Positions 61,101 through 61,987 of a stretch of DNA of 64,000 nt are shown here, piece by piece. The notes under the pieces were generated by a model. The model had not been told where the DNA came from, ran no database searches, and saw nothing but the letters and a program-made list of their open reading frames with translations. Made by a program: the position numbers and the translations under genes. Position 1 is the stretch's first letter; the number at the start of each line of letters is the position of its first letter. The DNA is from Escherichia phage ECO111 5-P: the sequence record OR844765. One strand, given 5' to 3'.

Positions 61101-61643
61101 ATGAGAAAAGCACTACTCGCTGGTCTATTTGCTCTTTCATTATCAGCACATAGCTCCGAGCATACTTTTAGTAATGTCCAACTCGATAACTTGAATTATG
61201 CTTATCAGTTTGGGGAACAGTTTTCTAAGGATGGAAAATTTAAAACGCATGAAAATATGCATAAGAAAGGACTTGGATACATAATGGCCGCAATACTATG
61301 GCAAGAATCATCTGCCGGTATTAATCTTAAAGATAAGAAAGGTCACCATGCGTATGGAATGTTCCAAAATTATCTACCAACAATGAGGGCAAGAATTAAC
61401 CAGCTTGGTTACAATATGACTGATGCCCAAATTAAGAAAATGCTATCTAAGCGGTCTAATTCAGCCAGATGGGCTTATATAGAATTTTCTTATTGGTTAA
61501 ATATACATAACGGGGATATAAGAAAAGCTATATCCTCATATAATGCGGGATGGAAGACAAGTGCTGGAAGTAAATATGCTTCTGAAGTCCTAGAAAAGGC
61601 TAATTACCTTAAATCAAATAAACTACTGGAAATAAAAGAATGA
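61101..61643 (+). CDS. Secreted lytic-transglycosylase-like (SLT family 1 motif) protein
   Basis: 180 aa; signal peptide MRKALLAGLFALSLSAHS; SLT signature LWQESSAG…AYGMFQNY…SYNAGW. Confidence 0.6.
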   Translation: MRKALLAGLFALSLSAHSSEHTFSNVQLDNLNYAYQFGEQFSKDGKFKTHENMHKKGLGYIMAAILWQESSAGINLKDKKGHHAYGMFQNYLPTMRARINQLGYNMTDAQIKKMLSKRSNSARWAYIEFSYWLNIHNGDIRKAISSYNAGWKTSAGSKYASEVLEKANYLKSNKLLEIKE

Positions 61644-61987
61644 CCAAAATGTTGGCTTTAATAGTTGGCTTGGTTTCATTTAATGCTCTTGCTAATACTA
61701 CATATACTGATGTAACGGAGTATACAAACAGAACGGCGTCTGATTATTGTGGTAAAAGTCAAGAGTGTAAAGTAGATTTTTCACAAAAATTGTTATATGC
61801 GTATAAAGACGGAGAAAAAGATGGGGCGTCTAGTAGGTTCAAGGCGTCTACCTTAATTAAAAGATACTATAAAAAATGGCAAATATTAGAATGCTCGGTG
61901 GCGGAACCTAAAGATAAGGCAGCATGCAATTCTATGGTGGACCGTCTAGTTGACTCTTATAATAGAGGACTTGCAGCAAGTGATTAA
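61640..61987 (+). CDS. Small secreted Cys-containing protein
   Basis: 115 aa; signal-peptide-like MTKMLALIVGLVSFNALA; 4 Cys; translationally coupled to SLT-like gene. Confidence 0.5.
   Translation: MTKMLALIVGLVSFNALANTTYTDVTEYTNRTASDYCGKSQECKVDFSQKLLYAYKDGEKDGASSRFKASTLIKRYYKKWQILECSVAEPKDKAACNSMVDRLVDSYNRGLAASD

Follow-up and report, generated by a model that had tools for sequence, protein, structure and literature searches.

The genes vs.1 and vs of Escherichia phage ECO111 5-P, located in the 64,000-nucleotide (nt) stretch of sequence record OR844765 that was analysed here (the window), appear to make up a conserved cassette whose two genes are translationally coupled and encode exported proteins. 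This is the best-supported reading of the sequence, and we consider it a reasonably probable one. The first gene (61101..61643, plus strand) encodes a precursor of 180 amino acids (aa), predicted to be an exported protein of the SLT/GH23 type, with 82% identity to T4 Vs.1 and a match to phrog_600 (3.7e-67). The second gene (61640..61987, plus strand) encodes a 115-aa precursor, predicted to be an exported four-helix bundle, with 68% full-length identity to T4 Vs and a match to phrog_1256 (1.8e-35). Both open reading frames (ORFs) are present where the original prediction, a brief reading of the same DNA, had placed them. Judged by sequence, the pair is orthologous to T4 vs.1 and vs and belongs to an RB69-like (Mosigvirus) T4-type phage. 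The DNA of window positions 60600-62500 is ~99% identical to that of the Escherichia phages DCP548, HY126, APCEc01 and SA79RD, of which SA79RD is classified as Mosigvirus (RB69-like).

According to this proposal, both genes would be transcribed early, as part of the regB–tk unit, and Sec signals would take both products to the periplasm. Vs.1 would act there as a small basic GH23/SLT-type lytic transglycosylase, with E69 cleaving the bond between N-acetylmuramic acid (MurNAc) and N-acetylglucosamine (GlcNAc) in murein and 1,6-anhydroMurNAc ends being left behind. Vs would be an 11-kDa four-helix bundle with two hairpin disulfides, a lipoprotein in one lineage, which resides in the same compartment as Vs.1 and most likely modulates, or is a co-factor of, Vs.1 or some other target in the envelope. 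The narrower proposal that Vs works in the periplasm as the disulfide-bonded partner of a lytic transglycosylase secreted early, and is lipid-anchored in some phages, is put forward tentatively, its chances being on the low side.

The transglycosylase-like protein Vs.1

The original prediction had described the 180-aa product as a signal-bearing, SLT-like protein, and this description holds: the quoted motifs are present, together with a Sec-type N-terminus and family-level SLT matches. The motifs are Q68-E69-S70-S71 (WQESS), G86-M87-F88-Q89 and S146-Y147-N148-A149-G150-W151, and the residues E69, S71, G86, Q89, Y147, N148 and G150 are invariant among 75 Vs.1 homologues spanning 40-100% identity. 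The proposed catalytic glutamate context stood up to alignment as well. In an hhalign comparison with the precursor of E. coli Slt70, E69 is placed on E505, the glutamate of the QES motif, and GMFQ on GLMQ. E505 of the precursor is a residue which we take to be the catalytic Glu478 of mature Slt70; E69 (codon 61305..61307, plus strand) is accordingly the predicted catalytic residue of Vs.1. The Pfam SLT model (PF01464) is matched by 65 of the 75 homologues at E <= 0.01, the best value being 1.3e-7.

Structure prediction agrees with the SLT assignment. The AlphaFold 2 (AF2) model of Vs.1, with a predicted local distance difference test (pLDDT) of 90.1 and a predicted template modelling score (pTM) of 0.83, suggests a lysozyme-like, all-helical fold. 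Its best Foldseek neighbours in the PDB are GH23 enzymes and lytic transglycosylases, namely the Ralstonia GH23 chitinase (3w6e), MltD (8rhi), Slt (6fcq, 5o2n), phi6 P5 and T7 gp16, with probabilities of 0.85-1.0 and template modelling (TM) scores of about 0.4-0.56. Taken over the homologues, the evidence makes the placement of Vs.1 in the SLT/GH23 lysozyme-like family sound at the family level. A marginal SLT similarity of T4 vs.1 has already been published (Nolan et al. 2006, PMC1524935), and several GenBank records name proteins of the Vs.1 type "transglycosylase SLT domain-containing"; the label of phrog_600 is "unknown function". Homologues of Vs.1 were found in 2,060 phage records, comprising Straboviridae of many hosts, Ackermannviridae, Felixounaviruses and others. 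NCBIfam gave no match for either Vs.1 or Vs.

Slt70 and the P. aeruginosa enzymes MltD and Slt share with Vs.1 the lysozyme-like helical fold, the motifs E-S, G-(L/M)-(M/F)-Q and (A/S)-Y-N-A-G, and the periplasmic location, which for Vs.1 is a predicted one. Unlike these enzymes, Vs.1 is far smaller, consisting of a single ~160-aa domain that includes a conserved N-terminal helix of its own (residues 23-38); it is also very basic, its sequence similarity to them is marginal when the single window protein is considered, and its activity is a predicted one. The predicted mature protein has about 162 aa, a mass of 18.7 kDa and an isoelectric point of 9.6. Phage-encoded SLT-type domains are present also in the two structural neighbours T7 gp16, where it is the N-terminal domain, and phi6 P5. 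Both of these proteins are particle components that act at entry or exit, whereas Vs.1 carries a predicted Sec signal, its gene belongs to the early non-structural region, and T4 does not require it.

Export signals and the cysteine pattern of the Vs family

Export was predicted with a rule-based scan, combined with conservation, the rules being that the n-region is basic, that an uncharged core of 10 or more residues follows and that the cleavage site has the form small-x-small. For Vs.1, the scan points to a Sec signal peptide of aa 1-18 (MRKALLAGLFALSLSAHS; 61101..61154, plus strand) with cleavage at AHS/SE, which in the model forms a separate helix with a pLDDT of 62. For Vs, the same rules point to a Sec signal peptide that likewise covers aa 1-18 (MTKMLALIVGLVSFNALA; 61640..61693, plus strand), with cleavage at ALA/NT and a pLDDT of 47-53. 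Signal features fit the rules in 74 of the 75 Vs.1 homologues and in every Vs homologue scanned, and all 57 unique full-length Vs-like proteins have a basic n-region and an uncharged stretch 10 or more residues long. The frequency of the majority residue is 0.44 in the signal versus 0.64 in the mature region of Vs.1, and 0.58 versus 0.70 in Vs; the signal regions are thus more variable than the mature ones, as expected of signal peptides. In the AF2 model of Vs, the N-terminal 19 residues are of low confidence, lack secondary structure and are not packed on the bundle. We also count in favour of export that full-length T4 Vs carrying an N-terminal His tag was insoluble on expression in E. coli (PMC8076793). 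In our literature searches, no paper mentioning a signal peptide in Vs was found.

The mature part of Vs is predicted to comprise about 97 aa (11.0 kDa). The precursor contains the cysteines C37 (codon 61748-50), C43 (61766-68), C85 (61892-94) and C96 (61925-27), which span 61748..61927 on the plus strand and are invariant in the Vs alignments. Each of the 57 unique full-length Vs-like proteins has exactly four cysteines in its mature part, arranged in the pattern C-x4-11-C ... C-x7-12-C. The AF2 model (pLDDT 86) shows a four-helix bundle with helices 20-37, 41-64, 69-85 and 90-114; here, C37 and C43 lie at the turn between helices 1 and 2, and C85 and C96 at the turn between helices 3 and 4. 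On this model, we predict that Vs carries two disulfides, each of which would staple a hairpin. The export signals, the cysteines and the catalytic residues of Vs.1 are conserved while the surrounding sequence drifts, and for this reason we regard them as more than chance features.

The original prediction had pointed to a signal-like N-terminus and four cysteines in the 115-aa protein, which are indeed the marks of an exported, cysteine-paired protein. While this reading of the sequence stands, the identity of the ORF as T4 vs, a gene whose annotation implies a conflicting cytoplasmic function, had gone unrecognised.

Vs belongs to a precomputed Pfam family, PF26829, which is carried by all of its database relatives. 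As judged from its profile, the T4-type Vs family is narrow (40 clusters at 90% identity). An exhaustive search with this profile among 1.84 billion representatives gave 7 matches only, which argues that Vs has no cellular relatives. Searches of the PDB with the Vs sequence and profile gave nothing significant, and a Pfam scan of 33 diverse Vs-like proteins at E-values up to 10 returned scattered chance matches and no LprI, Ivy, MliC or PliC. The ORF directly following vs.1 in Klebsiella phage KPN6 and in Acinetobacter phage ZZ1 is a divergent relative of Vs (type 2) with the same architecture; its homology is confirmed by a profile match to P0162 (E 4.5e-6) and by a structural match to a protein of Salmonella phage S16. 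Type 2 Vs was found in 411 further phage records. In phage ZZ1 (HQ698922), the deposited Vs-like start at 1983 yields a 98-aa "hypothetical protein" from which the signal peptide is cut off. The longer ORF at 1950-2279 of this locus (L006; 109 aa) restores the signal peptide and overlaps the vs.1 stop by 1 nt.

A lipobox (MKKLFVLLVVFALSGC, ALSGC) closes the signal of the Vs-like proteins from four loci, which represent two distinct sequences (L041 3549-3875; L042 2495-2821; L043 3549-3875; L066 3549-3875). These proteins are predicted, from their sequences, to be a lipoprotein version of the "valyl-tRNA synthetase modifier", and the lineage that encodes them is probably that of CC31/Karamvirus-like phages. 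At the related locus L045, Vs is reduced to a truncated remnant of 61 aa.

Gene linkage and competing views of Vs function

In the window, the vs.1 stop and the vs start overlap in an ATGA (61640..61643, plus strand; 4 nt), and the Shine-Dalgarno sequence ahead of vs is weak (GGAAATAAAAGA). Because of these two features, translational coupling of vs to vs.1 is likely. The window has the gene order regB–vs.1–vs–tk.4–tk of T4, with the thymidine kinase gene further on. In T4 (NC_000866), vs.1 lies at 61726-62271 and vs at 61386-61733. The T4 and window pairs are alike in gene order, in having a start/stop overlap, in their signal-like N-termini and in their cysteine positions; they differ in the length of the overlap, 4 nt in the window versus 8 nt in T4, and T4 Vs has one additional cysteine within the signal peptide, unlike the window protein.

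To follow the pair through other phages, Vs-like ORFs were identified with a hidden Markov model iterated on the ORFs of 85 loci encoding a Vs.1 homologue. A Vs-like ORF was present in 73 of these loci, and in 63 it started between -8 and +7 nt from the vs.1 stop; 61 loci have regB immediately ahead of vs.1. The pair is kept, with an overlap of 1 or 4 nt, also in Acinetobacter phages without a nearby regB, tk.4 and tk (L006, L057-L060, L063-L065). The link between the 180-aa and 115-aa genes that had been suggested from the window is thereby supported: adjacency in 63 of 85 loci includes phages without the flanking block. Where Vs is of type 2, among others in loci of the Jiaodavirus type and of Acinetobacter phages, a third exported ORF comes after it with a 4-nt overlap; it has 130-143 aa and a separate signal peptide (…SVNAWEKLPGYP…), so that three exported proteins are encoded in a row (L009 2309-2701 in KPN6; L006 2276-2707 in ZZ1; L041 3872-4291). 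This ORF is absent from the window.

Transposon data for T4 bear on both genes. The 2025 HIDEN-SEQ preprint (doi 10.1101/2025.11.20.689424) describes vs as showing the strongest depletion of all T4 genes in M9 glucose compared with lysogeny broth (LB), and a vs knockout as plaquing poorly on M9; the main-text passages that were searched discuss vs alone, not vs.1. According to the supplementary tables of the same preprint, neither gene is essential on LB plates. Insertion counts in liquid LB average 26.6 for vs and 22.6 for vs.1, compared to 179 for regB, 290 for tk.4 and 652 for vs.3; insertions in vs and vs.1 are thus 7- to 25-fold rarer than those in the neighbouring genes, the difference for vs.1 being about ten-fold. 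On passing from LB to M9, vs insertions show a log2 fold change (log2FC) of -2.19, with the adjusted p given as 0.00000, and vs.1 insertions one of -0.87 (p 0.0055, or 0.155 after adjustment). When the clinical strain CFE299 replaces K-12 as the host, the log2FC of vs.1 is -1.20 (adjusted p 0.015), and that of vs is -1.04, which is not significant (Tables S8 and S9 of the preprint). That vs and vs.1 behave alike, and unlike their neighbours, fits a shared role.

Several observations weigh against the cassette proposal. The depletion of vs.1 insertions may also be explained by a polar effect on vs. Moreover, the regB–tk block is syntenic across most Tevenvirinae, and part of the vs.1–vs adjacency is therefore plain synteny. 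Aeromonas phages keep regB–vs.1 and have no Vs, and a Vs.1-like gene without Vs occurs in Ackermannviridae, Felixounaviruses and more distant phages. In loci L070-L077, which derive from phages of about 176-180 kb, the Vs.1-like and Vs-like genes are separated by an insert of 0.47-1.2 kb with one to three unrelated non-secreted ORFs (~60-200 aa). (As a further peculiarity of these loci, the Vs.1-like protein is longer, with 211-226 aa, and the first cysteine spacing of the Vs-like protein is wider.) A mirror-tree (distance-matrix) test on 46 non-redundant loci revealed no special co-evolution of Vs.1 and Vs, with a partial r of 0.20 versus 0.60 for Vs.1–RegB; co-evolution is therefore not used here as support. 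The rate at which Vs evolves is about double that of Vs.1, and the deeply split Vs types do not follow Vs.1. As for the enzyme, the window Vs.1 scores 18.8 bits (E 0.0013) against Pfam SLT, below the gathering score of 21.3, sequence and profile searches of PDB sequences gave nothing significant, and the Foldseek E-values are modest (0.016-0.3, with 0.016 as the best). Finally, the partner classically assigned to vs is a cytoplasmic one, valyl-tRNA synthetase (ValRS).

Vs has been labelled a "valyl-tRNA synthetase modifier" since the 1970s-80s, and among the explanations that compete with ours the one built on this label survives best, although we hold it to be rather unlikely. It takes the 115-aa product for the tau factor, which would bind the host ValRS in the cytoplasm and alter its stability, the adjacency to vs.1 being merely an inherited order; the hydrophobic N-terminus of Vs would then be unused for export, or the protein would be exported only in part. 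Müller and Marchin are said to have reported, in 1977, a ValRS-modifying factor of about 10 kDa, compared to 11.0 kDa for processed Vs and 13.1 kDa for the T4 precursor; the better agreement with the processed form speaks against this explanation, since it would mean that the factor has crossed the membrane. The label is attached to T4 vs as well as to the PHROG family ("valyl tRNA synthetase modifier" for phrog_1256), and the synteny of the regB–vs.1–vs–tk.4 block in many genera, together with the missing co-evolution signal, is what a merely inherited order would leave. Biochemical work on a ValRS-modifying or -binding factor is cited in PMC8076793, and a vs knockout defect specific to minimal medium, as given in the HIDEN-SEQ preprint (doi 10.1101/2025.11.20.689424), fits a translation-related role. 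To meet ValRS, however, Vs would have to be located in the cytoplasm, and by prediction it is not. A signal peptide is found in all 57 unique members, one lineage has a lipobox, and the N-terminus is not packed on the bundle; the four invariant paired cysteines are typical of oxidising compartments. In addition, the Vs types of E. coli phages (T4 and RB69 versus Phi1/RB49-like) are only about 25-30% identical, which would be odd for proteins docking on the same host enzyme. Since Vs is predicted to be exported, the label is hard to reconcile with the sequence and needs re-examination.

A second alternative, which we consider unlikely, keeps Vs in the periplasm as a dedicated inhibitor or "immunity" protein that would restrain Vs.1 until lysis. 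Precedents for such pairs exist, as T4 Spackle inhibits the gp5 lysozyme and Ivy inhibits MltB. Spackle (sp, gp61.3), a small periplasmic protein with a signal peptide that acts on a murein-cleaving enzyme, is the nearest functional analogy for Vs. Ivy, MliC/PliC, PliG and LprI/DUF1311 are likewise small, exported and cysteine-containing, and resemble Vs in location and size only. The tight adjacency and translational coupling of the two genes, the predicted periplasmic location of both proteins and the stronger depletion of vs than of vs.1 in M9 would all suit an inhibitor. On the other hand, comparison of Vs with Spackle, Ivy, MliC/PliC, PliG and LprI revealed no similarity in sequence or fold, many phages have Vs.1 and no Vs, and the two proteins show no excess co-evolution. 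Loss of a toxin should be neutral, whereas vs.1 insertions are about as depleted in LB as those in vs; because vs.1 loss is itself costly, a pure toxin–antidote relation is not favoured. The inhibitor role that had been offered in the original prediction finds no direct support in these data.

That Vs.1 is a non-catalytic murein-binding protein which keeps the SLT fold, or that its SLT likeness is spurious, is very improbable: although the window protein falls short of the Pfam threshold, PDB searches remained without significant matches and an E-value of only 0.058 was reached when Slt70 was aligned with hhalign as a single sequence, all residues of the motifs E-S, G-x-x-Q and Y-N-A-G are invariant across the 75 homologues, most of these match SLT, and every structural comparison leads to GH23 enzymes or lytic transglycosylases.

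Neighbouring features and implications

The region from 58.5 to 64 kb of the window consists of densely packed plus-strand genes. Upstream of the exported pair lies the endoribonuclease gene regB (60634..61092, plus strand; Pfam REGB_T4, 6e-69), whose TAG stop (61090-61092) overlaps the GAGG Shine-Dalgarno sequence of vs.1 (61092-61095). A sigma-70 promoter scan gave no excess over shuffles and nothing convincing immediately upstream of vs.1. The downstream neighbour, which lies outside the pair, is a tk.4 orthologue with a macro domain (61980..62447, plus strand; Pfam Macro, 2.2e-6), annotated at the equivalent position in SA79RD. Its start is most likely the GTG at 61980, which overlaps the vs stop, rather than the TTG at 61950 proposed by the ORF finder. 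In the HIDEN-SEQ preprint (doi 10.1101/2025.11.20.689424), T4 tk.4 is named AdfM, an anti-DarTG2 factor.

Beginning 12 nt past the vs stop, within codons 7-13 of tk.4, we found a strong hairpin of the form AGGGCGAU-AUU-GUCGCCCU (61999-62017, plus strand; free energy -13 kcal/mol, z -2.8), which is followed by GUUUUCU. The stem is conserved in T4, VR20 and UP19; in Serratia phage CBH8 it is kept with a U-G to C-G change, and in kv_tblp2 and IME523 it is lost. The hairpin may form a 3' end of the regB–vs.1–vs message or stabilise that message, or it may only reflect the conserved KGDIVAL peptide. Further upstream, a 120-aa ORF (59518-59880, plus strand) corresponds in position to T4 vs.6, listed in the T4 record as a GrcA-like glycyl-radical cofactor. 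Based on its sequence and the T4 annotation, this ORF may be an early phage spare part for enzymes of the pyruvate formate-lyase type.

Both genes of the pair are already catalogued, the SLT likeness of Vs.1 is already in the literature, its secreted character can be read from the sequence, and the vs.1–vs pair is not a new kind of system. What appears not to have been stated before is that the whole Vs family would be exported and include a lipoprotein variant, and that Vs would be part of a widely conserved cassette with Vs.1. These readings contradict the functional label in hundreds of genome records: the ORF credited with the classical T4 function of ValRS modification belongs to a family that looks exported throughout, and it travels with a conserved secreted transglycosylase-like protein found in about 2,000 phage genomes.

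If Vs is indeed a periplasmic partner of Vs.1, the two proteins would remodel or guard the wall of the infected cell, and the poor growth of the T4 vs knockout on minimal medium would be an envelope phenotype. The binding of ValRS would then be secondary, for example by the processed basic 11-kDa protein meeting ValRS after cell breakage, or may instead belong to a different gene product. Placing the site of Vs action would either correct a long-standing, propagated annotation or reveal a dual-location protein, and it would provide a first handle on the role of an early periplasmic murein-cleaving enzyme in T4-type phages.

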